Assembly (NCBI GenBank): GCA_033810155.1
Contig: JAPXKJ010000003.1
Location: 24,639 to 88,638 of the forward strand
Origin: Bacillota bacterium
GTDB taxonomy: Bacteria; Bacillota; Sulfobacillia; Fermentithermobacillales; Fermentithermobacillaceae
Direction of reading: 5' to 3'
Length of the DNA: 64,000 bases
Shown here: positions 41,435 to 61,440 of the stretch, one piece after another
How the letters are laid out: every line of letters starts with the position of its first letter
Position numbering within the stretch: the stretch's first letter is position 1
Position numbers and translations under genes: made by a program
Notes under the pieces: generated by a model
The model's database searches: none
The model's input: only the letters and a program-made list of their open reading frames with translations
What the model was told of the DNA's origin: nothing

Positions 41435-41448
41435 TCCCCCATCCACTT

Positions 41449-41477: not shown

Positions 41478-41503
41478 ATGTTCTATATGGGGCCAAATAT
41501 GAG

Positions 41504-41540: not shown

Positions 41541-41561
41541 ACAGAGGTTCCATAGGAATTA

Positions 41562-42857: not shown

Positions 42858-42886
42858 TCCCCTCTCGTATTTGAACCAAACACAAG

Positions 42887-44011
42887 CTAGAACGTCTTTT
42901 CGATCTCGGCCTTCGCAAGTTCCAGTGCTTTTGCAAGCTGCTCTTCGTCCCCTTCTACCATTACATCCGGTTCGAGCCCTATTCCGTGAATGGAACGTCC
43001 CTTGGGAGTCAAATATTCGGCTATGGTGACTTTGACGTAGGAACCATCCCTTAGCTCATATGAATTCTGTACCAAACCTTTCCCGAATGTAGTCTTGCCC
43101 ACTAAAGTACCTACCTCATGATCCTGTATGGCTCCTGCCAGGATTTCGGAAGCGCTTGCAGTGCCCTCGTTAACCAGGACAACAAGGGGCATTCCCAATC
43201 CCGTACCCGATGAATTGAAACTCGTCTTCTCAAACTTCCTTCCACTGATAGTGACAACGGTTCCCTTGGGAACAAACAAGTTCGCAATATCTATGCACTT
43301 ATCCAAAAGGCCTCCACCGTTATAGCGGAGATCGAGTACTATGGCCTGAGCGCCCTGGGCTTTTAGCTCCTTCAGCGCCTGAGAAGTCTCTACAGCCGCA
43401 TTCTCGCTAAAAGTTATTAGTTCGATGTAGCCAATGGTATCGTCTTTCATCTCATAGTTTACAGCAGGAATAACGATGTTTTCTCTCACGAGCGAAAACT
43501 CAAGGATCTCACCGTCACGATATATGGTGATACTCACTTCGGTTCCAGCAGGACCTCTTATGAGTGCCGCGGCTTCGTCGCTAGTAAAAATATCCTTGCC
43601 GTTTACGCTGAGGATAACATCGTTTGCTTTGATGCCGGCTTTATCGGCAGGTGTTCCTTTCATTGGCGCTACGATAGTGACTTTCCCATCTTTTACCCCT
43701 ATAGTAATACCGACGCCAGAGTACTCACCGCTAGTCGTTATGTAAAACTCAGTCCACTCTTGCTTAGTCATGTATGTGGTGTACGGATCGCCAAGAGCTG
43801 ACACGACTCCCCGAGGAGCGCCTTCCATCAGACTAGTTTTGTCAAAATCCTTGTAATACGCTTGGTCTAAGACTCTTTGCACCTCATATACCTTTGCTAT
43901 AGGAGTATATCTGACCACAAAATACGAACATAATCCAACCGTAACCATAATTGATATAACGGCTGTAATAATGCACAGTCTCAGAGTTCTTCGATTAGAT
44001 TTAGCTTCCAT
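42887..44011 (-). CDS. ctpA: S41 family carboxyl-terminal processing protease
   Basis: N-terminal TM, a PDZ domain, then the S41 catalytic region GTASASEILAGA...K. Confidence 0.8.
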   Translation of the reverse strand: MEAKSNRRTLRLCIITAVISIMVTVGLCSYFVVRYTPIAKVYEVQRVLDQAYYKDFDKTSLMEGAPRGVVSALGDPYTTYMTKQEWTEFYITTSGEYSGVGITIGVKDGKVTIVAPMKGTPADKAGIKANDVILSVNGKDIFTSDEAAALIRGPAGTEVSITIYRDGEILEFSLVRENIVIPAVNYEMKDDTIGYIELITFSENAAVETSQALKELKAQGAQAIVLDLRYNGGGLLDKCIDIANLFVPKGTVVTISGRKFEKTSFNSSGTGLGMPLVVLVNEGTASASEILAGAIQDHEVGTLVGKTTFGKGLVQNSYELRDGSYVKVTIAEYLTPKGRSIHGIGLEPDVMVEGDEEQLAKALELAKAEIEKTF

Positions 44012-44216
44012 ATAAAGCCACCGCCGTTCTTTCCTTTATTCAATCGAACCCACACATAACATTCAGATCTGGTCTACTTATGAAGCGTCATACTCAGTCT
44101 AGCATATTCAAGACGAAACTGCTTATCCCAGTTGCTATGCAAGTCTCTACAAAAGGCTTGCACACCGACTTAGATAAGCAGCGCTTACGTTTGCGTCTAG
44201 AAATACCCTATGTGAC

Positions 44217-45380
44217 CTAAAAGGACACCCAGTTCTTGGGATTATCCGTAACACCCTTAACACGTACCTCAAAGTGTAGGTGGGGACCCGTGGACACTCC
44301 GGTGCTCCCAGCCAAGGCAATCGTTTGTCCTCTTGTGACCACATCTCCAACTTTTACTAACAGTTTAGAGGCATGACCATAGAGGGTTGAGATGCTGCCA
44401 CCATGGTCAATAATCACACAGAGCCCATATCCGCCATTTGAACCCGACAGGATAACTGTCCCATCTTCCGCAGCCTTTATAGGAGTACCGCTATTTACGG
44501 CAATATCTATGCCGGAATGCCATTTGTACTTCCCCAAAAGAGGATGCCACCTGTTGCCGTAGTCGGAGCTTATCCATCCTCCTGAGACCGGCCGTATCAT
44601 GGACAGGCCCTCAGGTTTCTCTCGCTGATGACCTTGTGCCTGAAGATCTATGATTACCTGTTCCAGAGCTTTGGACTCACGTTCCATTTCGTCGAGAGTT
44701 TCTTCAAGTTTTTGCCTGTCTTGCTGTAGTTGCGCAAGATATCTCTCTCTATCTGTGCTTCGAGATGCAACGGCCGCTCTTTTCTGCTCCTCTTGTCTTT
44801 TTGACCAGGTTATATCGTTAAGATCTTTCTCAAGTGTTGCTTTTTTCTCATCCAACGCAACCTTCATGGCCTCATATTCTTCGATAAGGCGGACATCGTC
44901 CTGGGCAACCTCGCGAAGGTAGTACAACCTAGCCGTAAAATCCGAAATGCTATCTGAGTTCAACAATATCTCCAAGTAGGACATTCTCCCGGCTTTGTAC
45001 ATAGTTACTAGTCTCTCGTCAAAAAGGCCCTTTTGCTCAGCTATCTTGTTTTCCATCGCTTCAATCTCTTTTTTTGTTTCGTTTATTCTTCCGTTGAGAT
45101 ATTCAATTCTAGCTACCATGTACGCAAGTTCTTTCTCCGACAAAGTCAGTTCCATTTCTAACTTTTCCAGTTCTTTCAACACGGAACTCTCTGAACGCCG
45201 TTTGGACTCAATCTGTTTTTGATACTCCTCAATCTCCTTTTGCATCCGCTCAAGTTCCGAATACTTGTCGTCCAAAATACCGGCTTTTGCAACATTAAGG
45301 TATGGGATAAAAGCCAAGCATAAAGCAGCTATCACGGCGAATGCGATAATGCTTTTGCATTTGTACCTGCCTTTCTCCAT
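44217..45380 (-). CDS. coiled-coil M23 family metallopeptidase (EnvC-like murein hydrolase activator)
   Basis: Long N-terminal coiled coil and a C-terminal HxGID...GSTGVSTGPHLHFE M23 domain. Lies downstream of ftsEX. Confidence 0.75.
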   Translation of the reverse strand: MEKGRYKCKSIIAFAVIAALCLAFIPYLNVAKAGILDDKYSELERMQKEIEEYQKQIESKRRSESSVLKELEKLEMELTLSEKELAYMVARIEYLNGRINETKKEIEAMENKIAEQKGLFDERLVTMYKAGRMSYLEILLNSDSISDFTARLYYLREVAQDDVRLIEEYEAMKVALDEKKATLEKDLNDITWSKRQEEQKRAAVASRSTDRERYLAQLQQDRQKLEETLDEMERESKALEQVIIDLQAQGHQREKPEGLSMIRPVSGGWISSDYGNRWHPLLGKYKWHSGIDIAVNSGTPIKAAEDGTVILSGSNGGYGLCVIIDHGGSISTLYGHASKLLVKVGDVVTRGQTIALAGSTGVSTGPHLHFEVRVKGVTDNPKNWVSF

Positions 45381-45398
45381 AGCAAAACCCCCTAACGA

Positions 45399-46283
45399 CT
45401 ACACTTTCAAATGTCTTCGGACTGAAAGGACCGAACCCGCCGCACCGACTACAATTCCAGTGATCGCCATTATCCCGAACATCTGCAGTGTTGACTGGGT
45501 ATCAAGCACATACATAGGTATAAATGGTATGAATTCATAGAGCCTCTCAAAAAGCCAATTGTAAATGCCAACTGCAAAGAAGGCACCCAAAATGCTCCCA
45601 AATACACCTATTACTACTCCTTCAAGTATAAAGGGACCTACAACGAATCCATCCGTAGCACCCACAAGCTTCATCACCGCAATTTCGTGCCGCCTGGAAT
45701 CGATTGTCAGCCTGATCGAATTCCCTATAACCATTATTGAAACTGCCCCTACTGCAACCATACCTCCGAGAGACACATACTGAATAGCCCGACCAATTGA
45801 CATCATTCGCCTCGAAACTTCTTCTTGGTAGATAACATCGTCTATGATATCAAGAGTCTGAATTTCAGCCACAACGGCATCGATTTCATCTACACCGGTA
45901 GTTTTCACCCTTATGCTTGCAGGCAAAGGATTCTCTTCTTTCAAAGAATCGAGCACAGACGCCTTATCTTTGAACATTAATTTCAACTCTTCGAGAGCAT
46001 CTTCCTTGCTCACATACTTTACAGTGCTAACACCAGGCATTCCTTGCACACGCTCAACTGCCGTAGAAATCTGTTCAGCCGAGGCATCTTTTATGATATA
46101 GGCCTGGATTTCCATCTGCTGTTCCGCCACGGTGTAGATATATCCTAAGTTAACGCTAACCAAGAAACTGATCCCGAGCAGAAACAACGCAAAACCTGTT
46201 GTTAAAGACGAGAGAAATGACGAAAATTTGCTACGCCATAGGCTCCTAAAAGCCTCAGAGAATACATATCCTATGAACCTCAA
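45399..46283 (-). CDS. ftsX: cell division ABC transporter permease FtsX
   Basis: Four-TM FtsX topology. Overlaps the ftsE stop. Confidence 0.8.
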   Translation of the reverse strand: MRFIGYVFSEAFRSLWRSKFSSFLSSLTTGFALFLLGISFLVSVNLGYIYTVAEQQMEIQAYIIKDASAEQISTAVERVQGMPGVSTVKYVSKEDALEELKLMFKDKASVLDSLKEENPLPASIRVKTTGVDEIDAVVAEIQTLDIIDDVIYQEEVSRRMMSIGRAIQYVSLGGMVAVGAVSIMVIGNSIRLTIDSRRHEIAVMKLVGATDGFVVGPFILEGVVIGVFGSILGAFFAVGIYNWLFERLYEFIPFIPMYVLDTQSTLQMFGIMAITGIVVGAAGSVLSVRRHLKV

Positions 46284-46969
46284 GAACTATACGCCCCTCT
46301 TCTCTCGTCACGTACAACTGTGCCGTTTCTGAGTTCGATCACTCTCTTCTTGAAGAGGTTAACCATATCCTGTGCATGAGTCGCGACTACAACAGTCGTG
46401 CCGTACATGTTGGCACGCTCGAGAAGGCTAAAAATCTCGTGAGCCGTCTTGGGATCCAAATTGCCGGAAGGTTCATCTGCCAAAAGAACATCGGGATTTC
46501 GGACAAGCGCCCTGGCAATGGCAATTCTCTGCTGCTCTCCCCCGGATAGCTCATTGGGATAAGCGTCTCTTCTGTCCTTTAAGCCAACTAGATTCAGAAC
46601 CTGGGCGACCCTTTTCTTGATCTCGCGTGTAGGCGTGCCCGTAACTTCCAGAGCAAAGGATATATTCTCTCCAATTGTCTTATCCTCAAGCAGTTTGAAG
46701 TCTTGGAATACTACACCTATGCGCCGTCTAAGAAAAGGAATCTCCCTTCGCCGAATCTTCGTCAAATCTTTTCCCAATACCACAACTTGACCAGTAGACG
46801 GTGTTTCTTCTCTGTACAATAGTTTTATGAGAGTAGACTTACCTGCGCCACTCGGACCCACGATAAACACAAACTCACCCTTGTCTATGGCAAGAGTTAC
46901 CGATTCCAGAGCTTTGGCGCTACGCCCATAATCTTTGGACACATTCCTCAAGCTAATCAAAATAGTCAC
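46280..46969 (-). CDS. ftsE: cell division ATP-binding protein FtsE
   Basis: GPSGAGKST Walker A, LSGGEQQR signature and a Walker B. Confidence 0.9.
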   Translation of the reverse strand: MTILISLRNVSKDYGRSAKALESVTLAIDKGEFVFIVGPSGAGKSTLIKLLYREETPSTGQVVVLGKDLTKIRRREIPFLRRRIGVVFQDFKLLEDKTIGENISFALEVTGTPTREIKKRVAQVLNLVGLKDRRDAYPNELSGGEQQRIAIARALVRNPDVLLADEPSGNLDPKTAHEIFSLLERANMYGTTVVVATHAQDMVNLFKKRVIELRNGTVVRDERRGAYSS

Positions 46970-47086
46970 CTGCCATCACAACGCAACAAAAGCTGCCTTA
47001 TGCTTGTACACTAATATTTCGACACGATTTCGGCACATCCTGTTCCCAGAAACGGCTAATACGCGCCCTTATGAAAAAAACTGCCC

Positions 47087-48088
47087 TCAGGTTTGAAGAA
47101 AGGCCCTTGCTTCTTCACAGAACTTCTCTGCCGTAAGTCCGTAGGCTTCCATAAGTTCCTTAGCCGACCCCGACTGCCCAAATTCATCGTTTACACCCAG
47201 ACGCATTACAGGCATAGGATGAATCCTACTCAGCGTTTCACATACTGCGCTACCTAGACCGCCGATTATGTTATGTTCCTCGCAAGTTATAATCATCCGA
47301 CTGCAAGCAGCCGCTTTTCTTAGCAACTCTACGTCGATAGGTTTTACGCACGCCATGTCTATCAAAAGACATGATATACCTTCGTCTTCAAGAGTCTGAG
47401 CAGCTTGCAAAGCAGGCAGAACCGTAACCCCACACGCTACAAAACAGACATCGAAAGGTGCCTCCTCTGGATCTGAACCTAATTTCCCCTCTATAAGGTC
47501 ATCGATGGAACCTTCTGACAATTGAGGCCATAAGACTGTCCCTTTTCCGATTTCAAAACTATGATTTGGCTTAAGTATAGGAGACACTTTCTCCCTGCCC
47601 AGCCTAATATAGACTGGCCCTTCATGGGCAGCAGCCGCTCTTACAGCGAGATGCGTTTCCCGGGCGTCGCAGGGCACTATGACGACCATTCCAGGAATCA
47701 CCCTCATAAGAGCAATATCCTCCAAGGCTTGATGAGATGCCCCGTCAGGGCCTACAGTAAGTCCCCCGTGAGATGCCACTATCTTCACATTGAAACCAGG
47801 ATATGCGATAGATTGCCGTACTTGATCGTATGCCCTGCCACTTGCAAATACAGCAAACGTTGACACAAATGGGATCTTCCCCGACCGTGCAAGCCCTGCC
47901 GCTATTCCCATCATATTGGCTTCGGCTATTCCCACGTTAAAAAACCGCTCGGGAAACGCTTTTGCAAATTCAGATGTTTTTGTAGAGGAGGACAAGTCTG
48001 CGTCAAGAACGCAAATATCAGGATTCTCCTTGCCTAATTCAACTAGGGTTTCACCGTAAGCGTCCCTTGTTGCTTTCATCTCCGATAC
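47087..48088 (-). CDS. transketolase, C-terminal section (split transketolase)
   Basis: Pyrimidine-binding and C-terminal domains. Start assigned to ATG 48088 (GAGGGTGAAGGGAGA RBS); the track's upstream extension is unsupported. Confidence 0.8.
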   Translation of the reverse strand, partial: VSEMKATRDAYGETLVELGKENPDICVLDADLSSSTKTSEFAKAFPERFFNVGIAEANMMGIAAGLARSGKIPFVSTFAVFASGRAYDQVRQSIAYPGFNVKIVASHGGLTVGPDGASHQALEDIALMRVIPGMVVIVPCDARETHLAVRAAAAHEGPVYIRLGREKVSPILKPNHSFEIGKGTVLWPQLSEGSIDDLIEGKLGSDPEEAPFDVCFVACGVTVLPALQAAQTLEDEGISCLLIDMACVKPIDVELLRKAAACSRMIITCEEHNIIGGLGSAVCETLSRIHPMPVMRLGVNDEFGQSGSAKELMEAYGLTAEKFCEEARAFLQT

Positions 48089-48148
48089 CTCGGACATTCT
48101 CCCTTCACCCTCGTGAACATTAATTCGGTAGATACAACATAGCACGAG

Positions 48149-49003
48149 TTAGATTTCTCGGCTCATCAATTCTTCAATCGCTTTCGCTGCTTCTTGTGGA
48201 CTCGGAGCTTTTCCATGCCATTCTCTCTTATTCTCCATGAAACTCACTCCCTTGCCCTTTACAGTCTCGGCAATTACAACCGAAGGGCGCCCTTTAGTCA
48301 TTCGGGCTTTGCCAAAAGCACTGAGAAGACTAATAGGATTGTGTCCGTCTGCCGAAAGCACGTTCCAACCAAATGCTTCAAACTTCTCAGACAAAGGCTC
48401 TGGGCACATTACATCCTCAATCCTGCCATCTATCTGAAGGTGATTGTGATCCACTATTGCCACGAGGTTATCTAGTCCGTAGTGATGACCTGCCATCGCG
48501 GCCTCCCAGACTTGACCTTCCTGGCATTCGCCATCTCCTAACAATACCCAGACCATGTACTGCTTACTATCCAATTTGCCCGAAAGAGCCATTCCAACTC
48601 CCATAGACAGGCCCTGACCCAAGGAACCCGTTGAGACTTCTACACCTGGCACTTTGCGACAGTCCGGATGCCCTTGCAGGGGCGAACCTAACTGCCTGAG
48701 TGTGGGCAAGAGATCTTTTGAAAAATAACCTTTCTCGGCCAAAACCGCATAAAGCGCAGGGGCAGCATGACCCTTGGAAAGAATGAACCTATCTCTATCG
48801 GGCCACAAAGGCTCATCAGGTTTCACGTTGAGCACCCCGCCAAAATATAACGTGCTCAATATATCTGCCGATGACAAAGACCCACCGGGATGACCCGAGC
48901 CCGCTTTGGATGTCATCTGTATTACATTGACCCTAATTTCTCTTGCCTTTTCTTTTACTAACTGAACTATCTTCTCCATGCTTTCGGTTGGGGATTCCTG
49001 CAT
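48149..49003 (-). CDS. transketolase, N-terminal (TPP-binding) section
   Basis: GSGHPGGSLS...GDGE...GHH thiamine-diphosphate motifs in 284 aa. Confidence 0.8.
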   Translation of the reverse strand: MQESPTESMEKIVQLVKEKAREIRVNVIQMTSKAGSGHPGGSLSSADILSTLYFGGVLNVKPDEPLWPDRDRFILSKGHAAPALYAVLAEKGYFSKDLLPTLRQLGSPLQGHPDCRKVPGVEVSTGSLGQGLSMGVGMALSGKLDSKQYMVWVLLGDGECQEGQVWEAAMAGHHYGLDNLVAIVDHNHLQIDGRIEDVMCPEPLSEKFEAFGWNVLSADGHNPISLLSAFGKARMTKGRPSVVIAETVKGKGVSFMENKREWHGKAPSPQEAAKAIEELMSREI

Positions 49004-49034
49004 CGTCTAGCCCTCCATCTTGCCTTTTCCCTTT

Positions 49035-49754
49035 TTACTCTTTGCCGCTCACAAGGATCTTAAGTACAAACTGCAAAAGCAAAGCATCTTGTTTTATCCT
49101 GCTCGGTTCCAGAATCAGCCGGTACAACCATTCCAAGCCTAGGTTCTGTATAATCTCCGGAGCTCTCTTCTTCTCTCCTGCCAATACATCGAAAACCCCA
49201 CCTACTCCTATGCCTACTTTGGCACCCAATTCACTTTTATACTTCCATATGAATTTCTCCTGCTTAGGAGAACCCATGGCACAAAGCAAGAGGTCAGCTT
49301 CTGTTTCCCTAATAGCCTGTACGATTCTAGGCTCCTCTTCCGGGGAAAAATATCCGTGATGGGTCCCACATATCCTAACCCCGGGGAACAGTTCCTTAGC
49401 CTTTTGAGCCGCTTTCTCTGCTACTTCTTCTTTCCCACCAAGGAAAAAAACCTTAGGCGAGACTTCTGAACCTAGCAAGCCATAAGCCAATTCTACACCT
49501 GTTACTCTGTCAGGCAAATCCACGCCCTTCCTACGAGCTGCCCAGAGGATTCCTACACCGTCGGGAACGATTAAATCGGCAGATCGGAGTATCTGCATAA
49601 ACTCAGCGTCCTTTTGAGCAGTCATCACCATTATAGGATTAGCCGTGACAATGATCTTTGTACGACCGTCGTTCTGAGAGAACATCCCCTCTATAGTGCT
49701 TAACGCCCCTTGAAGCGTAACAGGACTAAACTCAACTCCAAGAATATTGACCAA
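49035..49754 (-). CDS. tagA: WecB/TagA/CpsF family glycosyltransferase
   Basis: 239-aa protein with the family-typical ...GVGILW...FFLGG... core. Confidence 0.7.
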   Translation of the reverse strand: MVNILGVEFSPVTLQGALSTIEGMFSQNDGRTKIIVTANPIMVMTAQKDAEFMQILRSADLIVPDGVGILWAARRKGVDLPDRVTGVELAYGLLGSEVSPKVFFLGGKEEVAEKAAQKAKELFPGVRICGTHHGYFSPEEEPRIVQAIRETEADLLLCAMGSPKQEKFIWKYKSELGAKVGIGVGGVFDVLAGEKKRAPEIIQNLGLEWLYRLILEPSRIKQDALLLQFVLKILVSGKE

Positions 49755-49956
49755 CCTAACCTCACCCTTTTCAGTGTAACACGGAGACGATTCTCGTGAA
49801 CCAACTTCGGCTCTTTTTGCCGAATACCTGTTTAAAGATACAACCCTTCCTTAAGGGTATCTTTTTTTGTTATGATTCAAAAAGACTTGATTTAATGTTT
49901 GTGCTGTAAATAATGAATTGTAACCTGGACCATGCAAGAAAACGAGGTGCGGACGT

Positions 49957-51051
49957 GTGGCGAAAGTTCTCCTTTCCGGGTATTACGGTTTTGGTAACAT
50001 AGGCGATGAAGCTATTCTGGCGTCTACTGTCAAAGCTTTGAGAAAGGCCAGGCCTGACCTGGATATCATGGTCCTTTCTCAACATCCTGAGGAGACTAGC
50101 ACGGCATATGGCGTAGAATCTTATCCTAGAATGTCCATGAATGAGGTAAGAAAGGCCGTACGAAAATCAGATCTAGTGATCTTCGGCGGTGGAAGTCTAC
50201 TACAAGACGCTACTTCTTTTAGATCTCTTTTGTACTACCTGTCGATAATACACCTATCAAGTTTTTACAATAAACCTGTGGTAGTGTACGCAAACGGGAT
50301 CGGGCCAATAAACTCTCGTCTGGGCAGGTTACTTACAAAACGGGCTATGGGGAAAGTGAAAGACATAACAGTAAGAGATAGTGACTCCAAGGAGGAACTA
50401 TTGAGGCTCGGCGTGACTAAGGATATAAAGGTAACGGCTGACCCAGCTTTTCTTTTAGAGCCTGCACCAGACGATCTAACAAAGAAAATCCTTGAATCTC
50501 ATGGAGTGAACGGACAACAAGACATCGTATGGATTGCCCTAAGAGACATAAATGCTCCGGCATGGTTTTACGATCAAATCACGACATTAGTATCTAAGAT
50601 GAAACAACATGGGCTATCGCCGTGCTTTCTTGCGATGCAAGAAAGAGATTTGGCCTTGACCACGAAATTGAACCAAGATATCACAGCCATGAAGATGGAT
50701 CCATTGCCGGTTATCTCAAATGTAACGCCCGTAGATGCTCTCGGCATCCTTGGAGCTGGCCAATTCTGCCTGGGGATGCGATTACACACTTTGATACTAT
50801 CATCTAGAGTGGGAGTCCCATTTGTTGGGATAGATATAGACCCTAAGATTAGCGCATTTTGCAACACAGCAGGTTGTCCAGTTCTCCCATACCCGGCAAA
50901 ACACCCTAACTTCGACATCGTAAAAGAGTTTTTTGCCTTAATCCGAGATGGCGATATGTACAGAAGAACGCTGAATGAAGAACTACCGGTGTTCTCCTCT
51001 CTTGCCGAAGAAAACATAAGCATCGTCTTACGTCATCTAGACCGCATATAG
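49957..51051 (+). CDS. csaB: polysaccharide pyruvyl transferase CsaB
   Basis: GTG start. LSGYYGFGNIGDEAIL N-terminus typical of CsaB. Confidence 0.7.
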   Translation: MAKVLLSGYYGFGNIGDEAILASTVKALRKARPDLDIMVLSQHPEETSTAYGVESYPRMSMNEVRKAVRKSDLVIFGGGSLLQDATSFRSLLYYLSIIHLSSFYNKPVVVYANGIGPINSRLGRLLTKRAMGKVKDITVRDSDSKEELLRLGVTKDIKVTADPAFLLEPAPDDLTKKILESHGVNGQQDIVWIALRDINAPAWFYDQITTLVSKMKQHGLSPCFLAMQERDLALTTKLNQDITAMKMDPLPVISNVTPVDALGILGAGQFCLGMRLHTLILSSRVGVPFVGIDIDPKISAFCNTAGCPVLPYPAKHPNFDIVKEFFALIRDGDMYRRTLNEELPVFSSLAEENISIVLRHLDRI

Positions 51052-51067
51052 AACTGCCCGTAACCAC

Positions 51068-51487
51068 CTATCTAATGTCAAACTTGCCTCGTACCATAAT
51101 AAACGCATTGGAAGTAACCTTTATCCCTCTGCCATCATCTCTTGGAACCAAAAGTAGGTGATTTCTTGGCACTTCGGCACCTTTTGCCAGGTCGGAGCCG
51201 GCAGTAACATCGCACAACCCACCAAGTTCAGAATCTATTACGGTAGCATCTCCTGATCTGAGAATGATCTCTGTCCCAGAATACCCGATAAGGCTCTGCC
51301 CAGAAGAAAGTTCAACTACATTCATCTTCATCATTGAATCCACATAGGACCTTGAGACTAACGGATCGTCCTCGCTCCCGGGTAAAACTGTGCTACCAGC
51401 GAAAACCAGCCCCCTACCAAACCACCCAACTGAAAACGCGACTAGCACTGCTAATACCACCAAACATATCAGGTATCTCCTTGGCAT
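51068..51487 (-). CDS. hypothetical secreted/membrane-anchored protein
   Basis: 139-aa ORF with an N-terminal hydrophobic helix. No recognisable family. Confidence 0.4.
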   Translation of the reverse strand: MPRRYLICLVVLAVLVAFSVGWFGRGLVFAGSTVLPGSEDDPLVSRSYVDSMMKMNVVELSSGQSLIGYSGTEIILRSGDATVIDSELGGLCDVTAGSDLAKGAEVPRNHLLLVPRDDGRGIKVTSNAFIMVRGKFDIR

Positions 51488-51520
51488 TTCAGAACCACCT
51501 TCCGTAGGTTTTGATATGTG

Positions 51521-52635
51521 TTATCCGTCTGCCGCCCGTTCGGCATCTTGCCGAAGTTTGGCATATATGAAGTCGTCTATATCGCCATCCATAACACGTT
51601 CCACGTTGGTTATCTCTAAGCCTGTGCGGTGGTCTTTAACCAGCGTGTATGGCTGAAAGATATATGACCTAATCTGACTTCCCCATGTAATCTCTTTTTG
51701 GGGACCCCTAAGGTTTTCAATCTCCTTTAGTTTTTCTTCCTCCTTGAGGGCCAGAAGTTTGGCTTTTAAAACCCGCATTGCCACGAGCTTATTCGAGTGC
51801 TGAGAACGCTCGTTTTGGCATGTAACGACAATGCCTGTAGGAATATGCGTGATCCTAACCGCAGAATCAGTCTTATTAACGTGCTGGCCACCTGCGCCAG
51901 AAGACCTATATGTGTCTATCTTGATCTCATCTGGGTTGATGTCTACTTCTTCTTCGGTTTCAATCTCAGGCAACACGTCCACAGATGCAAACGAGGTGTG
52001 CCTCCTCTGATTTGAATCGAAAGGAGAGATCCTTACCAGCCTGTGCACGCCCTTTTCCGGGCGCAAAAAACCATATGCGTGGTCGCCCCTAACAGAAAAA
52101 CTCACGCTTTTCAGTCCGGCTTCCTCACCAGGTAACATATCAAGAGTCTCCAGTTCAAATCCTCTACGCTCAACCCATCTAGAGTACATTCTGTAGAGCA
52201 TCTCAACCCAATCCATCGCCTCTGTACCCCCTGCACCCGCATGCAGGGTAACTATGGCGTCTCTCGAATCATACGGGCCAGAAAACAAGGTTTCAAACTC
52301 TAGGTCGTGGATCTTTCCAGACAGTTCCTCCGCCGTTTGCTTCAGATCTTCTAGAAGCGACATGTCGCCTTCTTCTTCGGCCAAAATAGCTATGGAAATA
52401 CTGTCTTCTACCTGGACCTTGAGATCGTTGAATGTGTTTAGTTTGTTTTCGATATGGCTTATTCGTCTGCCAATTGATTGCGCTCGCCTATGATCTTCCC
52501 ATACTGAAGGGTCTTGCATTTTGGCATTTAGATCCGCCAACTCCATGGATAACTTAACAGGGTCAAAGAGACCTCCCAATATTTGCTAGTCTTTCTTTCA
52601 AAGACTCCAATTCATTTATTACTTCTTCGTACATA
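51521..52635 (-). CDS. prfB: peptide chain release factor 2, expressed through a programmed +1 frameshift
   Basis: Frame 0 from ATG 52635 (GGAGGG 7 nt upstream) encodes MYEEVINELESLKERLANIGRSL and then UGA. The +1 frame continues DPVKLSMELADL... through the SPF and GGQ (SGAGGQHVNKT) motifs to 51521. Confidence 0.85.
52562..52577 (-). other. RF2 autoregulatory +1 frameshift site
   Basis: Internal SD GGGAGG (52577..52572), UCU spacer, slippery CUU UGA C (52568..52562). This is the canonical prfB shift cassette. Confidence 0.8.
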
Positions 52636-52706
52636 ATCATTCCCTCCGCTAATTACGATACCTGTGACCCATTTCCCAGACATGAATAATACGGCATTTT
52701 GCGCCG

Positions 52707-55466
52707 TTATCCAAGTTTTCCACAACAATTTTTATACTTCTTTCCGCTACCACACGGGCAGGGGTCATTTCGCCCTACTTTTTTCCCGAACTTAAGCGGT
52801 GCAGACCTTTGTTGTCCACCTTCAGGTGTATCTTGAGATTGAGGCCCGCTAAGTCTTATCACTCTCACCGGCCCCGAGGTTCCTTGACCATCTCTTTTGG
52901 ATCCGACGCCTCGTTCCTTAGATACAGTTACTCTGTAGAGATAGGAGACTGTATCTTTCTCTATATTTTGAACCATGTTCTGAAACAGTTCATAACCTTC
53001 TTTTTGATATTCAAGTAAAGGATCTCTCTGACCATACGCCCTCAGTCCTATTCCTTCGCGAAGACCCTCCATGGCACGCAGCTGGTCTATCCACTTTTGA
53101 TCAACTACTCTAAGAAGGATGAGTCGCTGCACCTCGTTGAAGTTCGGCCCAAGCATTTCTGCTTTCTCTTTGTATCCTTGATCGAAAACCTTCATGACAG
53201 CTTCTAATACAACTTCTCTGGAACTGGCAGAATCCAAAACTTTTCCGAAATCTATGGCAGGCATTAGCTCCTTGAGATAAGAAACAAGCCCGTCTATATC
53301 TGCCTCGTGGTTCCTTTCGCCCGGATTCCAAAATGCATCAAAGCCCGTTTCTACTGTCCTCGTAATCATACTCCGCAGAATATCACAAAGATCATCAAGT
53401 TCAAGTACCTGGCGTCTCTGAGCGTATATGACTTCACGCTGTTTGTTCAGAACATTGTCGTATTCGAGCACATTCTTCCTTATAGAAAAGTTGTGCGCCT
53501 CAATGCGTTTCTGGGCTGTTTCCACAGACTTGGTGATCAATGGGTGCTCTATAGGCTCGTCCTCTGAGAATCCTACCTTTTCCATAACGTTACTTATGAG
53601 GTCCCCTCCAAACAGCCGCATAAGCTCATCATCCAACGAAAGATAGAACCTCGACGAGCCCGGGTCTCCTTGTCTACCCGCTCTGCCTCTTAACTGGTTA
53701 TCTATACGCCGAGCTTCGTGGCGTTCTGTTCCAAGAACATGGAGTCCGCCCAAAGACACTACCTCGTCATGCTCTTCATCTGTCTGACTTTTGAACTGCT
53801 CAAAGAGTTCCTTGTATCTGCTTCTCGCCTCAAGAATCACATTAGTGCGCTCATCTTGTGTGCCCTCGTCTACCTTTGCAAGTATTGCTTGGGGCAGCAC
53901 CTTCTCCGAGGCGATAGATACCACTTCAGGATCATAGCCTTCTTTTCTAAGAGCCGAACGCGTCATGAAGTCAGGATTGCCACCCAGTAGGATGTCAGTT
54001 CCCCGCCCGGCCATGTTGGTTGCAATGGTCACCGCGCCTTTTCTTCCTGCCTGGGCCACTATTTCCGCTTCCCGTTCGTGATGCTTAGCGTTGAGGACTT
54101 CATGGTCGATCCCTCTTCTTTTGAGCATAGAAGATAGCATCTCTGATTTTTCCACCGAACGCGTGCCCACAAGAACGGGCCTGGCAATTTCATGCATGTG
54201 AGCAATTTCTTCAACAACAGCTTTGAACTTGGCGTCTGCTGTTTTCCAAATAGAATCGGGCATATTCGTCCTTACCAGAGCCTTATTCGGTGGAATAGAC
54301 ACAACATCCAAACCGTATATTTCTACAAACTCCGGTTCTTCAGTGGCAGCGGTTCCTGTCATGCCGGAAAGTTTGTCATACATCCTGAAGAAGTTTTGCA
54401 CTGTGATAGTAGCGAGCGTATCGCTTTCTTCTTTTATGTTTACTCCTTCTTTGGCTTCAATTGCCTGATGAAGCCCATCTGAAAATCTCCTACCTTCAAG
54501 AATGCGACCGGTAAACTCATCTACTATTAGAACCTCTCCGTTTTTCACCACGTAGTCAACATCTCGATGCATTAGCTCTTTTGCCCTTAGGGCCTGCTTA
54601 ACATAATGCTCCAACCCTATGTTGTTTTCATCGGAAAGATCCTCTATGCCCAACCATTCCTCTGTTTTTTTGATCCCTTCATCGGTCAATACGATCGTCT
54701 TAGCTTTCTCATCTATTGTGTAATGGTTATCTCTTTTTAGCGTGCGAGCCAGATCCCTAAATCTTATATACTTGTCTGTAGTGCCCTCTCCTCGGCCTGA
54801 AATTATGAGAGGGGTTCTTGCCTCATCTATCAGAATTGAATCAACCTCATCGATTACAGCGTAGTTTAGAGGGCTTTGAACGAGATCCTCCTTGCGCCAA
54901 GCCATGTTATCTCTAAGATAGTCAAAACCGAATTCCGTATTCGTACCATAGATGATAGGGCATGAATAAGAATCCTTCTTCTGAGCAACTTCCATTCCCG
55001 GGATTACAAGTCCTACATCTAAGCCCAAGAACCTGTAAATTTGACCCATCCACTCTCTATCTCGCTTTGCCAGATAGTCGTTGACCGTAACTACGTGGAC
55101 GGTAGCGCCTCCTAAGGCGTTCAGATAAGTCGGGAGAGTAGCTACGAGCGTTTTTCCTTCTCCCGTTTGCATCTCCGCAATACGTCCCTGATGAAGAACA
55201 ACACCGCCTATTATCTGAACGTCAAAGTGCCTCATATCGAGCACGCGTTTGGAAACTTCTCTGACGACGGCAAAAGCCTCGGGCAGTATTTTATCCAGCG
55301 GCTCACCTCTAGATATGCGTTCCCGGAACTCTCCGGTCTTACCTTGCAGGTTTCCGTCGGAAGCTCGCTCCAAAACCGGCTCAAATCTTCCTACCAAATC
55401 GACGATTGGACTTATTTTTCGCAGCTCCCGGTCATTGGCGTTAAACAAATTCTTTAGAATGGACAT
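52707..55466 (-). CDS. secA: preprotein translocase ATPase SecA
   Basis: DEAD-motor motifs and a C-terminal zinc-binding CPCGSGKKYKNCCG. Start assigned to ATG 55466 (AAGGAG 6 nt upstream, N-terminus MSILKNLF). Confidence 0.9.
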   Translation of the reverse strand: MSILKNLFNANDRELRKISPIVDLVGRFEPVLERASDGNLQGKTGEFRERISRGEPLDKILPEAFAVVREVSKRVLDMRHFDVQIIGGVVLHQGRIAEMQTGEGKTLVATLPTYLNALGGATVHVVTVNDYLAKRDREWMGQIYRFLGLDVGLVIPGMEVAQKKDSYSCPIIYGTNTEFGFDYLRDNMAWRKEDLVQSPLNYAVIDEVDSILIDEARTPLIISGRGEGTTDKYIRFRDLARTLKRDNHYTIDEKAKTIVLTDEGIKKTEEWLGIEDLSDENNIGLEHYVKQALRAKELMHRDVDYVVKNGEVLIVDEFTGRILEGRRFSDGLHQAIEAKEGVNIKEESDTLATITVQNFFRMYDKLSGMTGTAATEEPEFVEIYGLDVVSIPPNKALVRTNMPDSIWKTADAKFKAVVEEIAHMHEIARPVLVGTRSVEKSEMLSSMLKRRGIDHEVLNAKHHEREAEIVAQAGRKGAVTIATNMAGRGTDILLGGNPDFMTRSALRKEGYDPEVVSIASEKVLPQAILAKVDEGTQDERTNVILEARSRYKELFEQFKSQTDEEHDEVVSLGGLHVLGTERHEARRIDNQLRGRAGRQGDPGSSRFYLSLDDELMRLFGGDLISNVMEKVGFSEDEPIEHPLITKSVETAQKRIEAHNFSIRKNVLEYDNVLNKQREVIYAQRRQVLELDDLCDILRSMITRTVETGFDAFWNPGERNHEADIDGLVSYLKELMPAIDFGKVLDSASSREVVLEAVMKVFDQGYKEKAEMLGPNFNEVQRLILLRVVDQKWIDQLRAMEGLREGIGLRAYGQRDPLLEYQKEGYELFQNMVQNIEKDTVSYLYRVTVSKERGVGSKRDGQGTSGPVRVIRLSGPQSQDTPEGGQQRSAPLKFGKKVGRNDPCPCGSGKKYKNCCGKLG

Positions 55467-55516
55467 GCATATCTCCTTTTCTGCGTGCAAACTCACAAAC
55501 AATCAAACAGTTTTGC

Positions 55517-56101
55517 CTATATATCTCTGCCTTTAATTCTACCATTCTTCTGCCTCTGCGAAAAACTTGCATGCATTGCGTTCATTATGAACAAGAAGAT
55601 TCCCGCCGCCATGAATATGTCGCCTAGACTAAACGTGGTGGGCGCTTTGGAAAGAAACTTCCAAGAGAATATATCTGCAAGAAACGTAAGCGTTGTGTTA
55701 TCCCCTAACATGCAGTGAGTAAAACTGGAAGAGAGCACTGATATTTGGCTGCCCAAGACATCGGGGCCTAGCGGAGACAAATCAACAGGCATTCTGCCTC
55801 CATTGGCCATTATGACTAGGAAATTCAAAAATACTCCAAACGCAAGCACCCTAAACCCACGCAATCTTAGATTTGGATAAAGGCCGTAAAATAGCATAAG
55901 GTAAGTAACGAAACTTAAGACGAGGCAAATCTGCGGATACGGCTCAAATCTACCGCTTAGCAACTTGATCGATGCGATTTTCACCAAGAATGAACCCGCA
56001 ATCCACACCACTCTATCAAGGTCTACATCTGCAAGCCGAGAAATCTTGCCTCCCGAAACTAGCCCAACAACCAGGGAAACGACCATTACGGTTAGGAACA
56101 A
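55517..56101 (-). CDS. DUF5317-family integral membrane protein
   Basis: Six hydrophobic segments. Typical genomic partner of HD-GYP phosphodiesterases in Clostridia. Confidence 0.55.
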   Translation of the reverse strand: MFLTVMVVSLVVGLVSGGKISRLADVDLDRVVWIAGSFLVKIASIKLLSGRFEPYPQICLVLSFVTYLMLFYGLYPNLRLRGFRVLAFGVFLNFLVIMANGGRMPVDLSPLGPDVLGSQISVLSSSFTHCMLGDNTTLTFLADIFSWKFLSKAPTTFSLGDIFMAAGIFLFIMNAMHASFSQRQKNGRIKGRDI

Positions 56102-56105
56102 CGGA

Positions 56106-57371
56106 TCACTTCCTTAGAATCTTTTCATCTATTACTTTGAGCATAGCTTCTACCACTTGGGGATCAAACTGAGTTCCACTGCACCTTATGATCTCTTTTC
56201 TAGCCTCTTCATAGTCCATCCTTTCTTTGTACGGCCGATCTGTTGTCATAGCATCAAAAGCGTCTGCGCAGGCAATAATACGCGCTTCTAGAGGTATCTC
56301 TTCACCACGTAATCCTTTCGGGAAACCTGTACCATCCCATCTCTCATGGTGGTATCTCACCCACTCCGCACCCTTACTCAATGTCTTCATCGCCCCAATA
56401 ATATCTGCCCCTATATCAACATGCTTCTTCATTTCTTCATATTCTTCGTACGTAAAATAGTCTGTTTTCTTTAATATGTTGTCAGGTATTCCTACTTTGC
56501 CCACATCATGCAAAAGGGCAACGTGTTTCAGTAAGTCCACCTCTTCGTCGTCAAGTCCCATTTCTTTTCCTAGTAACCCAGAGTATTCGGACACCCTTAT
56601 GGAATGGCCCTGGGTATACGGATCTCTTGCATCTACAGCCGTACCCAAAGCCTCAGCCATTTCGCCATAGGTGTCTTTTAGATCCACATATTTCTGAAGG
56701 GACATCTTAGTCACGACTAAAGGCAGATAAAACAACAGAAGCACAAGGGGCCCAGCTTGTTTCGTTACAACAACCATAAGGGCGCCGAGAGGAAATAGAG
56801 CGAACATATTAGGCAACATCCACACTATGTTCTGGCGCCAAATGGTCAGGAAAGATAGTCCGGTTTGAAGGGACACAAATTCTCCGGTCATGACAGCATT
56901 GAGCATCGTGTAAGCTAGCGCCGCTAATACAAAAGCCAGAAGTCCTGAAGGAAATTCCAAGAATCCAAATTCGCCGCCCAGAAAAGCGTACACAATGGAG
57001 AACACATAGGCGCATATGCTTAGCATCCCCCTGTTGAATAGTACTAGTTTGAGAGGAACCTGCCCTACTAAGTCTCGTCTGCGAAGAGTAAACAACGCTG
57101 CCACCCACATACCTATGGCAGGACCGTGCAGAACGATAACCGTGAAAATGAGAGGGGCAGCGACGGAAGCGGTACCTTTCCCCTTTGGGAAAGGAATTGC
57201 CAGAGTCTCGCCAAAAGCTATGAGCGCTCCCAAAAAACATACTTCTAAAAAGTGAGCCCAACCCTCGAATGAAGGAATGTTCATACATAGCAACGCAATA
57301 CCAAGGCATATTATGCCCCATAAATACACATCAAAGGACTTGAGACTCTTATTCAACGGTAGACACCTCAT
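56106..57371 (-). CDS. membrane-anchored HD-GYP domain c-di-GMP phosphodiesterase
   Basis: N-terminal polytopic domain, then HVALLHDVGK and HHERWDGTGFPKG, i.e. HD and GYP motifs. Confidence 0.8.
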   Translation of the reverse strand: MRCLPLNKSLKSFDVYLWGIICLGIALLCMNIPSFEGWAHFLEVCFLGALIAFGETLAIPFPKGKGTASVAAPLIFTVIVLHGPAIGMWVAALFTLRRRDLVGQVPLKLVLFNRGMLSICAYVFSIVYAFLGGEFGFLEFPSGLLAFVLAALAYTMLNAVMTGEFVSLQTGLSFLTIWRQNIVWMLPNMFALFPLGALMVVVTKQAGPLVLLLFYLPLVVTKMSLQKYVDLKDTYGEMAEALGTAVDARDPYTQGHSIRVSEYSGLLGKEMGLDDEEVDLLKHVALLHDVGKVGIPDNILKKTDYFTYEEYEEMKKHVDIGADIIGAMKTLSKGAEWVRYHHERWDGTGFPKGLRGEEIPLEARIIACADAFDAMTTDRPYKERMDYEEARKEIIRCSGTQFDPQVVEAMLKVIDEKILRK

Positions 57372-57631
57372 GACCAGGCCGACAGCCCCGGCAGAAACTC
57401 TAACCTACTTGAAAGTTCGCCGCTCCAGCCAAAAGGAGCGTGAGGATGGCGAAAATCACCCTGAGAACCTTCTTATTCACCTAAAAACCCCCCGTCAACT
57501 GGCTGAATCTGAATCGCTAGATCAGATTCATTTAGCTCCGCTGATGAAAGTTGCCGGGCTGTCGGCATAGTAATTTGTTCAACGACTGTTTCGATTAGTC
57601 CTTCTATTAAGTAGTGCAAATCCGTCTGATC

Positions 57632-58273
57632 TCATGCATTCGCCATAAGCCTTGGAAACCGCCGATTAACCGCATCAAGAGTCGCCTTTACCACCGCTTC
57701 CCTTTCGTCATATGAAACAGGACAAGAACCCGTTAGGGTTAGTTCCCTGCCATCCTCAATAACACCAAGAACAACCAGAGCCGTTCGCAGAGATCTTGAC
57801 TCGTATACATTTACATCTCTAAGAGAAATATTAACACTTTCTTTCAAGAAATGACTAAGAGCGTTTACAGTAGCTTCTGCGCAAAACCAGTTCCATCTGG
57901 TCGCAGTGGCAATTCCTTCACTTTCTCCGAGAGAAACTACTCCACCCAAAGCAAGTCTTACTCTAGCAACAGCAGATGATCCGCTTGCCATGAGCTCTAT
58001 CCCGACCAGTTTCGGCCGAGCGACAAAAGCCAATTCTGTGTCGGTCATCTGAACGATCGAAATCTTACCTTTATCGATCTTTTCTCCGGATGCCGCCAAG
58101 ATGGCAGATTCTACATCGCGTATTACATATTTGGGCGAACGACCTGTTCGCGCCACGACATTAATTTCGTCGACATTGTTGTCCTCGCCAATGGAAACTC
58201 GACAATCCAACACGTCATTTATCTTCTTGATGATGTCCTCATAATCTTTGGCTGAATGATCCTTGATGCCCAT
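57632..58273 (-). CDS. hypothetical protein (213 aa)
   Basis: No family recognised. Co-directional with and 33 nt downstream of the 396-aa gene. Confidence 0.45.
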   Translation of the reverse strand: MGIKDHSAKDYEDIIKKINDVLDCRVSIGEDNNVDEINVVARTGRSPKYVIRDVESAILAASGEKIDKGKISIVQMTDTELAFVARPKLVGIELMASGSSAVARVRLALGGVVSLGESEGIATATRWNWFCAEATVNALSHFLKESVNISLRDVNVYESRSLRTALVVLGVIEDGRELTLTGSCPVSYDEREAVVKATLDAVNRRFPRLMANA

Positions 58274-58306
58274 TTTTATGCACTCCCAATTGGAAAAGCG
58301 CTTCGA

Positions 58307-59497
58307 TCACATATACGGGGCCATAATTGCAGTGTTATGACGATACCCTGAATCTTCTTTCTCCTTAGCAACCATCTCTGCCATAATCCACAGTCCCGCA
58401 GCCACCAGACTGTGCCCGCCAAGTATAACCGGGACAGGGCATTCAACCGCGCTCTTAGTAAAATCCCTTACCCACTCATCTTCAATCAATTGGTACTGGC
58501 CTAGATCTGAGTAGAACCTGTCCCAATCGGAAACTTGACCCTTAAGATGAGCAAAAATCACTCTTGTATCGATGAAGGCTAGATCGCAGACACGAGACAG
58601 ATACTCAAAAAACATCTTCGGGCCGACCTCATTTATCATAAAACCTAATAGAGATACAACTTCTCCTCTTTCTTCTCGACCCAATGCCTTCATACCTCTC
58701 TCCTCAGAAAACACACGCATTCTATGCACCATGTTGGAGTTTATATATTGTATGACCGCAGGCCCCACTCGTCCTATCACCGCTATCTCACGTGAATCTT
58801 GCCTAAGTATTCGTAAGGCATCATTTAGGTTCTGAGTAGGCCAATCGAGAGAACTTATGATCCTTGATGATCTCGGTCCACAGTTAGGATGCAGACCAAG
58901 TACCAGGATATCAGTTGGGGTATCTATATCGAAATTGACCCTACCCGAGTTAGGCACAAGAAGCCGCCGCATTCCAATGTCGCGAAGCAAATTGCCAAGG
59001 ACGTTGTCATTCTCAGGTAGTTCAACCTCATCGATTGCTCTTGCAGGAGTAAAGGCAACCAGGTCTGCGGACTGGACATTATTCATTATGACTGTATTTC
59101 GGCTCTGCTTGAGCGTAAGGGCAATCTGGTCAAACTCTTCCAAATACACAAGGGGGGCAGCTGTCCCCCCCATATACAACACGTTTTCTAATCGGTAATT
59201 GACGATTATCTCCCTTAATCTACGTCCAAAGTGGAACTTGCCATCATCTGGCTCCAAATCAACTATTGCGAACTCTGACGCTTCGCGCGCGAGGTCTTCG
59301 TAATTGGTTGCAAGTATGATTTCGTCAATTTCCGGTGCCAATGCCAGCTTAGACAGTGTATCTAGGGCAATCTCTTTCCGGATGTCTTTGATCTTTGCAT
59401 CTAGAGAAGTTTTCGGTTTACCACCTTCAAACATTACTGCGGTAACCTTAGGTTGTTCCAAGCTGGCTCCCCCGCTTAACATAGACAAGTTTCCCAA
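58307..59497 (-). CDS. hypothetical two-domain protein (396 aa)
   Basis: No motif I can assign. It starts 6 nt after the hpf stop, so it is probably co-transcribed. Confidence 0.45.
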   Translation of the reverse strand: MGNLSMLSGGASLEQPKVTAVMFEGGKPKTSLDAKIKDIRKEIALDTLSKLALAPEIDEIILATNYEDLAREASEFAIVDLEPDDGKFHFGRRLREIIVNYRLENVLYMGGTAAPLVYLEEFDQIALTLKQSRNTVIMNNVQSADLVAFTPARAIDEVELPENDNVLGNLLRDIGMRRLLVPNSGRVNFDIDTPTDILVLGLHPNCGPRSSRIISSLDWPTQNLNDALRILRQDSREIAVIGRVGPAVIQYINSNMVHRMRVFSEERGMKALGREERGEVVSLLGFMINEVGPKMFFEYLSRVCDLAFIDTRVIFAHLKGQVSDWDRFYSDLGQYQLIEDEWVRDFTKSAVECPVPVILGGHSLVAAGLWIMAEMVAKEKEDSGYRHNTAIMAPYM

Positions 59498-59503
59498 AAG
59501 CCC

Positions 59504-60019
59504 CTATATTTCCGGCTCAATGAGACCAAAGTTGCCGTCTTTTCTTCTGTAGATCACGTTAACCAAACCGGTTTCCCCGTTTGCAAAAACAAAGAAATCG
59601 TGACCCAAAAGCTCCATCTGCATCGCAGCTTCTTCAGGCATCATAGGTTTCATGGCAAATCTCTTGACTTTTACGATCCTTCCCGTTTCCGGTTCTTCCT
59701 CATGTTCTGACAACCGAGGTTCTTGCTTATCGCGCTTAAGAAGCCTCGTCTTATATTTGTCCAGCTGCCGCTCGAGTTTCTCAACAACCAGGTCTACTGA
59801 GGCAAACGCGTCCTGGGCCGACTCTTCTGCCCTCAAAATCATGCCGTTGAGAGGTAGCGTAACTTCAACCACGTACCTGCCCCGCTGAGTTGAAAACATC
59901 ACCTGGCACAAACAAGAATCCTGCTTTACATACTTATCCAATTTGGACAATTTCTTCTCTGCATATTCCCGAAGTGCGGGGCTTACATTCATGTTCTTAC
60001 CTCTTACGTTGATCTCCAT
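59504..60019 (-). CDS. hpf: ribosome hibernation promoting factor (long form)
   Basis: MEINVRGKNMNVSPALREYAEKKLSKL N-terminus and a C-terminal dimerisation domain. Confidence 0.85.
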   Translation of the reverse strand: MEINVRGKNMNVSPALREYAEKKLSKLDKYVKQDSCLCQVMFSTQRGRYVVEVTLPLNGMILRAEESAQDAFASVDLVVEKLERQLDKYKTRLLKRDKQEPRLSEHEEEPETGRIVKVKRFAMKPMMPEEAAMQMELLGHDFFVFANGETGLVNVIYRRKDGNFGLIEPEI

Positions 60020-60323
60020 GTGGCATGCCTCCTCGAAATAACCGTTACTTTTGCCTTTGGATTATGCGAATAACCAAAGATCTCTTCGTACTATACAATA
60101 AGTTCTCCGAGCCCATTCCATATACCTTTCATATGGCTTTACACGACGCTTCAATCTCAATTCAATAATACGCTAAACCCATACATGTGTGAACCTGCAA
60201 TCCACATAACTGTGCACAATGGAAGATAGCATCTAAGTGGTTATCAACACAATTATCCACACTATCCCCAGATATCATTATGCAGTTTTCGCCCACCGTT
60301 CACTACAAAATCAAAAATACTTG

Positions 60324-60352
60324 TTGACTCTTTCTTCTTATCGTGCTATATT
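60324..60352 (+). promoter_or_regulatory. sigma-A promoter of cspA
   Basis: TTGACT (60324..60329), 17 nt, TATATT (60347..60352). AGGAGG lies about 11 nt before the ATG and the leader is about 70 nt. Confidence 0.6.
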
Positions 60353-60426
60353 CGCAACACGAGCTAAAAGCTCCAAAAGATGTTGGGTTGGGGCCCAGCG
60401 TCGGGAATTAGGAGGAATGTCCCACA

Positions 60427-60630
60427 ATGCAAGGTACAGTAAAATGGTTTAACGCGCAAAAAGGCTTCGGTTTCATTCAACGTGATGACGGTCCAGACGT
60501 ATTCGTACACTATTCGGCAATCAAATCTGACGGGTTTCGTACGCTTAACGAAGGCGATCTTGTAGAATTCGAAATCGTAGAAGGCCCCAAAGGCCTGCAA
60601 GCTGCAGAAGTGACTAGAATTTCTGAGTAA
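60427..60630 (+). CDS. cspA: cold-shock protein (CspA family)
   Basis: [17 protein letters not shown]...VFVHYSAI carries the RNP1 and RNP2 motifs. Confidence 0.9.
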
Positions 60631-60643
60631 GCAAAGCCAACTC

Positions 60644-60672
60644 GCCCCGGTCTATAACCGGGGCTTTTTTAT
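60644..60672 (+). terminator. rho-independent terminator of cspA
   Basis: GCCCCGG-TCTATAA-CCGGGGC followed by TTTTTTATTT. Confidence 0.7.
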
Positions 60673-60679
60673 TTCTACT

Positions 60680-61048
60680 CTACAAAACGGTATCAAATCG
60701 TCCCCCTGAGTAGTTACCGGTGGAATAAGCTGATAAGACCCTTAATTGAGTGATGACATCCGAGATCTCGTGACTGATGTTCGTCATTTCTTGTTGCAGA
60801 AGCGAGGCAATCTCCTTATCCAACTCGCCTACTGAAACTATGATCTCTTTGATTGATTCAAATTCTTTATCTCCTAATTGAGGATTGCCACAGGAGTCTA
60901 TTCGTTTGAGGATCTCTTCCCTTTCCGATATTATCGACTCAAGACTCGAAAAGTCTCCACCCTGCGCAAAAGTTAGTGCTTTCTTGGTCAGTTCTAAAAG
61001 GTCTTTGAACATGTTAAGCATGGCTTCTAATCGCTTCTTCCCAACCAT
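60680..61048 (-). CDS. fliT: flagellar chaperone FliT-like protein (alternatively FlgN-like)
   Basis: 122-aa helical protein immediately after fliS, in the B. subtilis order fliD-fliS-fliT-hpf. Sequence similarity is weak. Confidence 0.4.
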   Translation of the reverse strand: MVGKKRLEAMLNMFKDLLELTKKALTFAQGGDFSSLESIISEREEILKRIDSCGNPQLGDKEFESIKEIIVSVGELDKEIASLLQQEMTNISHEISDVITQLRVLSAYSTGNYSGGRFDTVL

Positions 61049-61409
61049 CTCTAATTTCGGTCATAATCGTAATCGCGGCTTCTACTTGCTCTGGATCTTT
61101 TTTGAGGTTTGCGGATACGAGCGATGAATAAACAAAATCGTACACAGATGCAAGACTGTCTGCAATCTCACCTGTGCTGAAATCCAGGGATACTCTCAGT
61201 TCGTCAATGATATCTTGCGCACGTATGAGGCTTTCATTTGCACCGCTGTAATTTTTGTCCGCTATGCATTGCATTGCCCTCCGCATGGACTTGAGACAAC
61301 CATCGTACAGCATAAGTACCAGTTCAGCTGGTGAAGCAGTCTCTACCTTCGACTGCCTGTATACTTCAAGCGCTTTGTCTATATTTCCCACATACCCTAC
61401 ATTCACCAA
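61014..61409 (-). CDS. fliS: flagellar export chaperone FliS
   Basis: ASPAELVLMLYDGCLK is the FliS signature. Confidence 0.8.
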   Translation of the reverse strand: MVNVGYVGNIDKALEVYRQSKVETASPAELVLMLYDGCLKSMRRAMQCIADKNYSGANESLIRAQDIIDELRVSLDFSTGEIADSLASVYDFVYSSLVSANLKKDPEQVEAAITIMTEIRDGWEEAIRSHA

Positions 61410-61440
61410 AGCCTATCACCTATCTTTCTTCTACTTCATC

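Follow-up and report, generated by a model that had tools for sequence, protein, structure and literature searches.

An interrupted reading frame at the start of an RF2 gene

On the minus strand of the window, by which we mean the whole 64,000-nucleotide stretch of DNA that was analysed, the prfB (RF2) gene is broken near its start by an in-frame TGA. The question raised by this locus is whether the two parts of the gene are joined by a programmed +1 ribosomal frameshift, or whether the stop codon is an artefact of sequencing or separates RF2 from an unrelated leader. The mechanical ORF list gives a TTG-initiated ORF at 51521..52579 (352 aa), as the first-pass annotation had reported, and at a minimum length of 20 aa it also gives a short ORF of 25 codons at 52563..52640. 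We are highly confident that these are parts of a single gene, prfB, with the canonical autoregulatory programmed +1 frameshift.

Anatomy of the recoding site

The complete gene (51521..52634, minus strand) consists of a frame-0 segment at 52634..52566, a skipped T at 52565 and a +1-frame segment at 52564..51521. The frame-0 segment, MYEEVINELESLKERLANIGRSL, comprises 23 codons from the ATG at 52634 and ends ...LANIGRSL. Read from an ATG at 52640 it becomes M-I-MYEEVINELESLKERLANIGRSL, again followed by the TGA at 52565..52563, which is codon 24 of the window prfB. The first-pass annotation had described these 23 codons, ending in IGRSL and followed by an in-frame UGA, and they are seen on the minus strand. 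Its start codon, ATG at 52635, needs correction by one base: the ATG that opens the 23 codons is at 52634..52632. The +1 frame begins DPVKLSMELADL... at 52564 and has 347 codons before the TAA at 51523..51521.

On the minus strand, the context of the stop at 52577..52562 is GGGAGG-TCT-CTT-TGA-C, which is the arrangement that had been proposed, with an internal Shine-Dalgarno (SD) sequence 3 nt before CUU. The SD-like hexamer GGGAGG (52572..52577) lies exactly 3 nt 5' of the slippery CTT, and the intervening spacer is the E-site codon TCT (Ser, 52569..52571). It is followed by the slippery CTT_T (52565..52568; CTT at 52568..52566, T at 52565) and by the premature, RF2-specific stop with its 3' base, TGA-C (52562..52565; TGA at 52565..52563, C at 52562). 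The whole frameshift cassette is ATTGGGAGGTCTCTTTGACCCT. A search for the combined motif GGAGGNNNCTTTGAC gave one match in the 64-kb window and none in 100 dinucleotide-preserving shuffles, so a chance occurrence in the window is excluded.

Stop codon usage was summarised for a crude set of 49 ORFs from the window. Of the 15 TGA stops that end genes in this set, a small number, not one is followed by C, and the TGA-C of prfB is therefore an atypically weak context. TGA accounts for 31% of stops in the same set, below the very high usage of RF2 codons that is tied to loss of the motif. When 161 nt of RNA around the site were folded, the result was no more structured than shuffled sequences (z = -0.29), on which basis structure-stimulated frameshifting was rejected; nor is a structure needed. 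A search of the whole window (1..64000) against Rfam matched no family at gathering thresholds: no curated frameshift element, no riboswitch, no rRNA (including 16S) and no tRNA (including tRNA-Leu). All sequence-level hallmarks of a prfB +1 frameshift are present, namely UGA, CUU_U, the SD-like spacing, the 3' C, a joined RF2 product and conservation.

Proposed frameshifting mechanism

The stepwise mechanism is taken from the E. coli literature as summarised in PMC12421855. Translation would start at the ATG at 52634 and proceed through 23 codons in frame 0, bringing CUU (Leu) into the P site and UGA-C into the A site. With abundant RF2, the ribosome would terminate and release a 23-residue peptide. 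If RF2 were scarce, the ribosome would instead pause at UGA-C, and during the pause GGGAGG, 3 nt upstream, would pair with the anti-SD of 16S rRNA in a duplex expected to destabilise the E-site tRNA. The peptidyl-tRNA-Leu would slip, re-pairing from CUU to UUU, after which GAC (Asp) would be decoded and the 347-codon +1 frame translated to give a 370-aa RF2. For the window gene, we infer slippage, SD:anti-SD pairing and RF2-dependent feedback from studies of E. coli and B. subtilis.

Several features of the window are consistent with this mechanism. There is no RNA structure around the site, the TGA-C context is weak, and GGAGG is used for initiation. GGAGG falls 4-10 nt before the start of a long ORF in 25 of its 102 occurrences in the window, as compared with 1/102 for its complement; it thus serves as an initiation signal here, and the enrichment lends indirect support to complementarity between the internal SD and the 3' end of the 16S rRNA.

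Conservation of the site among relatives

Relatives were scanned using one genome per GTDB species, and 80 related loci were returned. The closest come from Candidatus Fermentithermobacillaceae MAGs (96% and 92% identity) and other uncultured Bacillota, and they include the complete MAG genome of Ca. Fermentithermobacillus carboniphilus. At the 96% locus (L001) the site is identical to that of the window. CTT-TGA is found in 52/80 loci, and the other 28/80 carry one uninterrupted RF2 ORF. In 51 of the 80, a scripted scan found CTT-TGA followed by a +1 ORF of 300-380 codons that encodes SPF and GGQ; the 52nd, L056, has a canonical GGGAGGTCATCTTTGACC site (L056 4040..4230). In L056 the +1 frame is broken again downstream, with the longest remaining RF2 ORF starting at 4223, probably due to an assembly indel.

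At the 52 related sites, TCT serves as spacer codon 28 times, CAT 12 times and TCA 8 times. TGA is followed by C at 50 of them and by A at the remaining 2; the two CTT TGA A sites (L076 3945 and L077 4011) are in MAGs labelled Streptobacillus and Spirochaetota.

We placed the window and its 15 closest species-level relatives (Ca. Fermentithermobacillaceae and allied Bacillota MAGs) in an ungapped register. Fifteen consecutive nucleotides, GGAGGTCTCTTTGAC, which include the GGAGG core of the SD-like hexamer, are invariant in all 16 sequences. In the upstream flank, the mean non-consensus counts at the three positions of frame-0 codons are 3.8/1.7/6.6, and in the downstream flank the corresponding counts for +1-frame codons are 5.2/3.7/7.9; both flanks are thus free to vary, most of all at third positions. 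The conservation of the 15 nt goes further than constraint on coding would account for. This pattern is the signature of two coding frames that meet at a recoding signal constrained at the nucleotide level. The anatomy of the site, its strong nucleotide conservation and the RF2 homology of both gene segments (detailed below) are established for the window.

The frameshift could be essentially constitutive in this lineage, an evolutionary relic that no longer forms part of an RF2-sensing feedback loop. Frameshift efficiency does depend on lineage and is low, for example, in M. smegmatis, according to PMC12421855. Yet the in-frame stop in the window, TGA, is specific to RF2 and has the weak context of a following C, as have 50/52 related sites, and the RF1-specific TAG is never the stop at prfB sites in the genomes surveyed in PMC12421855. 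All elements are absolutely conserved across relatives with RF2 matches of 67-96% identity, which argues for continuing selection. Unregulated RF2 is also toxic to B. subtilis, another member of the Bacillota (PMC12421855). We regard a constitutive shift as very improbable, and prefer an autoregulatory one.

One-base frame breaks are common as assembly artefacts, and the second break in L056 looks like such an error. If the in-frame stop of the window had arisen in the same way, as a sequencing or assembly indel, the real gene would be one uninterrupted ORF. The break, however, sits exactly inside 16 nt that correspond to the cassette known for this frameshift, CTT-TGA recurs in more than half of the related loci, and the same 15 nt are invariant across 15 separately assembled species-level genomes. 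In relatives where the shift is truly absent, the SD-like and CTTT elements are absent too, in agreement with PMC12421855. Thus, the probability of an indel is negligible. The invariance of GGAGGTCTCTTTGAC amid third-position variation, first in frame 0 and then in the +1 frame, excludes both a pseudogene and the sequencing error that the first-pass annotation had named as what would refute its reading. The identical site was also seen in a Logan contig (run SRR21487928); this contig may share a sample with the window and so was not counted as an independent resequencing.

The joined product is a full-length RF2

Joining the 23 frame-0 codons to the 347 +1-frame codons that precede the TAA gives a protein of 370 aa. 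It scores 511.2 bits against the NCBIfam prfB model TIGR00020 (cutoff 370), whereas its scores against the RF1 models, 288 and 283 bits, are under their cutoffs of 400 and 423. Pfam identifies PCRF (PF03462, 1.4e-56) and RF-1 (PF00472, 1.7e-43). The RF2 stop-codon recognition tripeptide SPF (residues 203-205; 52019..52027, minus strand) and the peptidyl-tRNA hydrolysis motif GGQ (residues 248-250; 51884..51892, minus strand) are both encoded in the +1 frame. The earlier statement that RF2 continues in this frame is borne out.

The best PDB sequence matches of the joined protein are the RF2 chains 9fy1 (366 residues, E 7e-122) and 6szs (362 residues, 6e-121), both of which we take to be from B. 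subtilis, and the next matches are to E. coli and Thermus RF2. The match to 9fy1 spans nearly the whole protein. Its alignment is unbroken over query residues 4-362 and crosses the junction between frame 0 and the +1 frame, where ...RLANIGRSLDPVK... lies opposite ...RLADFRGSLDLES... and SLD is conserved. Compared as protein only, the two are collinear through the junction (...RLADFRGSLD... in 9fy1, ...RLANIGRSLD... in the window), and the frame-0 query residues 4-23 pair with residues 5-24 of the chain. Because the alignment runs across the junction, the 23 frame-0 codons encode the genuine RF2 N-terminus and are not an unrelated leader.

This bears on the possibility that RF2 synthesis involves no recoding and begins at the TTG at 52579 or at an ATG at 'MELADL', so that the 23-codon ORF would be an unrelated leader or the locus a pseudogene. 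Products of that kind, of 352, 341 or 332 aa, do appear in the ORF list and in the output of most public gene callers. However, besides the alignment of the 23 residues with the N-terminus of solved RF2 chains, the leader is under frame-0 purifying selection in the relatives, with its start and SD conserved, and the TTG at 52579 falls within the SD-like motif, with no separate SD to serve it. We give translation without recoding practically no credence. Nor is prfB a pseudogene, since the +1 ORF is unbroken, every catalytic motif is in place and the score is well over the prfB cutoff. The recoded two-segment gene is the reading we retain.

Start codon, initiation signal and gene neighbourhood

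The likely true start is the ATG at 52632..52634 (minus strand). ATG or GTG is found at this position in 16/16 aligned sequences, exactly 66 nt 5' of CTT in every one. The in-frame ATG two codons upstream (52640..52638) is not conserved in the relatives. An initiation SD, GGAGGG, is located at 52642..52647 (minus strand), with the core GGAGG 8 nt and the full hexamer 7 nt 5' of the ATG at 52634. The purine-rich block and the position of the start are kept in the 15 relatives.

Upstream of prfB, across a 72-nt gap, is secA (52707..55502, minus strand; Pfam SecA_DEAD, P-loop_SecA, SecA_SW and SEC-C). In 45/80 related loci a secA match precedes prfB, and in the 15 closest it ends directly beside that gene; we presume that secA is upstream of prfB in B. 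subtilis as well. The 15 closest relatives retain the order DUF5317, secA, prfB and 139-aa ORF. The 139-aa ORF, directly downstream of prfB (51068..51487, minus strand), has a hydrophobic N-terminus (MPRRYLICLVVLAVLVAFSVGWFG...) and is matched by no Pfam family; only these 15 relatives have it at the same position, with 53-96% identity. The region upstream of secA (55517..57371, minus strand) encodes a DUF5317 protein (194 aa), conserved directly upstream of secA in about 16 relatives, and an HD_5/HD protein with a MASE9 sensor region (421 aa).

A scan of 51000..53000 for promoters and terminators gave counts near shuffle expectation. The sole terminator-like hairpin after secA, ACGGCGCAAAATGCCGT (52691..52707, minus strand), is weak and overlaps the secA stop codon; because its T-tract, ATTATTCATG, is poor, we rejected it as an operon boundary. 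Elsewhere in the window, a split transketolase consists of an N-terminal part (48149..49003) and a part with the pyrimidine-binding and C-terminal regions (47087..48145). Near it, a WecG/TagA glycosyltransferase is encoded on the minus strand (49035..49754) and a polysaccharide pyruvyl transferase on the plus strand (49957..51051). Of 49 long non-overlapping ORFs in the window, 40 are on the minus strand.

Comparison with prfB of E. coli and other bacteria

Alignment with a known prfB at the shift site had been suggested as a check, and the E. coli K-12 gene (b2891) matches element for element; the solved RF2 chain, as described above, is collinear through the junction. The E. coli site reads CTT AGG GGG TAT CTT TGA C, and its RefSeq annotation is a two-piece join. 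Common to both genes are an SD-like hexamer, a 3-nt spacer codon, CTT, TGA and C, and in both the +1 frame opens with GAC (Asp) and encodes the remaining RF2. The two proteins align end to end (E 5e-104). The differences at the site are minor and lie in the hexamer (GGGAGG in the window, AGGGGG in E. coli K-12), the spacer codon in the E site (UCU for Ser, compared with UAU for Tyr) and the length of the frame-0 leader (23 codons with the stop at codon 24, compared with 25 codons with the stop at codon 26). The neighbours also differ: the upstream gene is secA in the window but recJ in E. coli, where lysS is downstream. In the YRSSGAGGQ stretch of the window RF2, Ser occupies the residue equivalent to what we take to be position 246 of E. 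coli RF2. A blastn search ('distant') of the gene against E. coli genomes matched prfA only (70% identity over 146 nt) and was set aside.

Across bacteria, the programmed frameshift is required for prfB in 64% of 12,753 genomes (Prince, Lin and Feaga, mBio 2025, PMC12421855), and the SD-like sequence, CTTT and the next C are described there as hyper-conserved at prfB sites.

Representation of the gene in public data

The first-pass annotation had remarked that ORF tracks miss recoded genes. This is correct for the present gene, because its product is public solely as a truncated call and most members of its cluster are truncated too. In an exact look-up of the public protein collection, the window product was present only as the 352-aa TTG call, and neither the joined 370-aa protein nor the 341-aa ATG version was found. 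The 90%-identity cluster (that of P0001) consists mostly of N-terminally truncated calls of 341, 332 or 352 aa, from JGI/IMG, ENA, Logan and NCBI. Within it, the full 370 aa appear only as NCBI nr entries, in two versions.

The first version, P0005 (HON86879.1 / HRC52942.1 / MBP8620638.1), from Candidatus Fermentithermobacillaceae MAGs, is a few amino-acid substitutions away from the window protein and shares the cluster with the window's 352-aa TTG-ORF product. Its junction, NIGRSL-DPVKLS, is as in the window, and the RSL-DPVK peptide that had been predicted is thereby present in the NCBI protein of a close relative. The second version, P0008 (MBP8613992.1), reads NIGRLF-DPVA, and the DNA of locus L002 at 4045..4080 is GGGAGG TCT CTT TGA C. 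The P0008 join is placed one codon early (RLFD for RSLD), which is a detail of annotation and not of biology.

Significance of the prfB site

The site is a textbook recoding site, already known and ordinary, and NCBI has annotated it correctly in near-identical relatives. Its importance is one of annotation only: naive ORF finders and many metagenome gene callers give truncated products of 332-352 aa, and the true 370-aa protein requires a two-piece join.

There is a slim chance that the site does more than this. The combination of GGGAGG and UCU, invariant across the clade, may set a frameshift efficiency, and with it an RF2 set-point, unlike that of E. coli, or the 23-residue product may have a function of its own. 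As a counterweight to a special role for GGGAGG and UCU, UCU is simply the commonest spacer codon at the related sites. If a different set-point did exist, it could reflect adaptation to life in a thermophilic, anaerobic lineage of the Bacillota.
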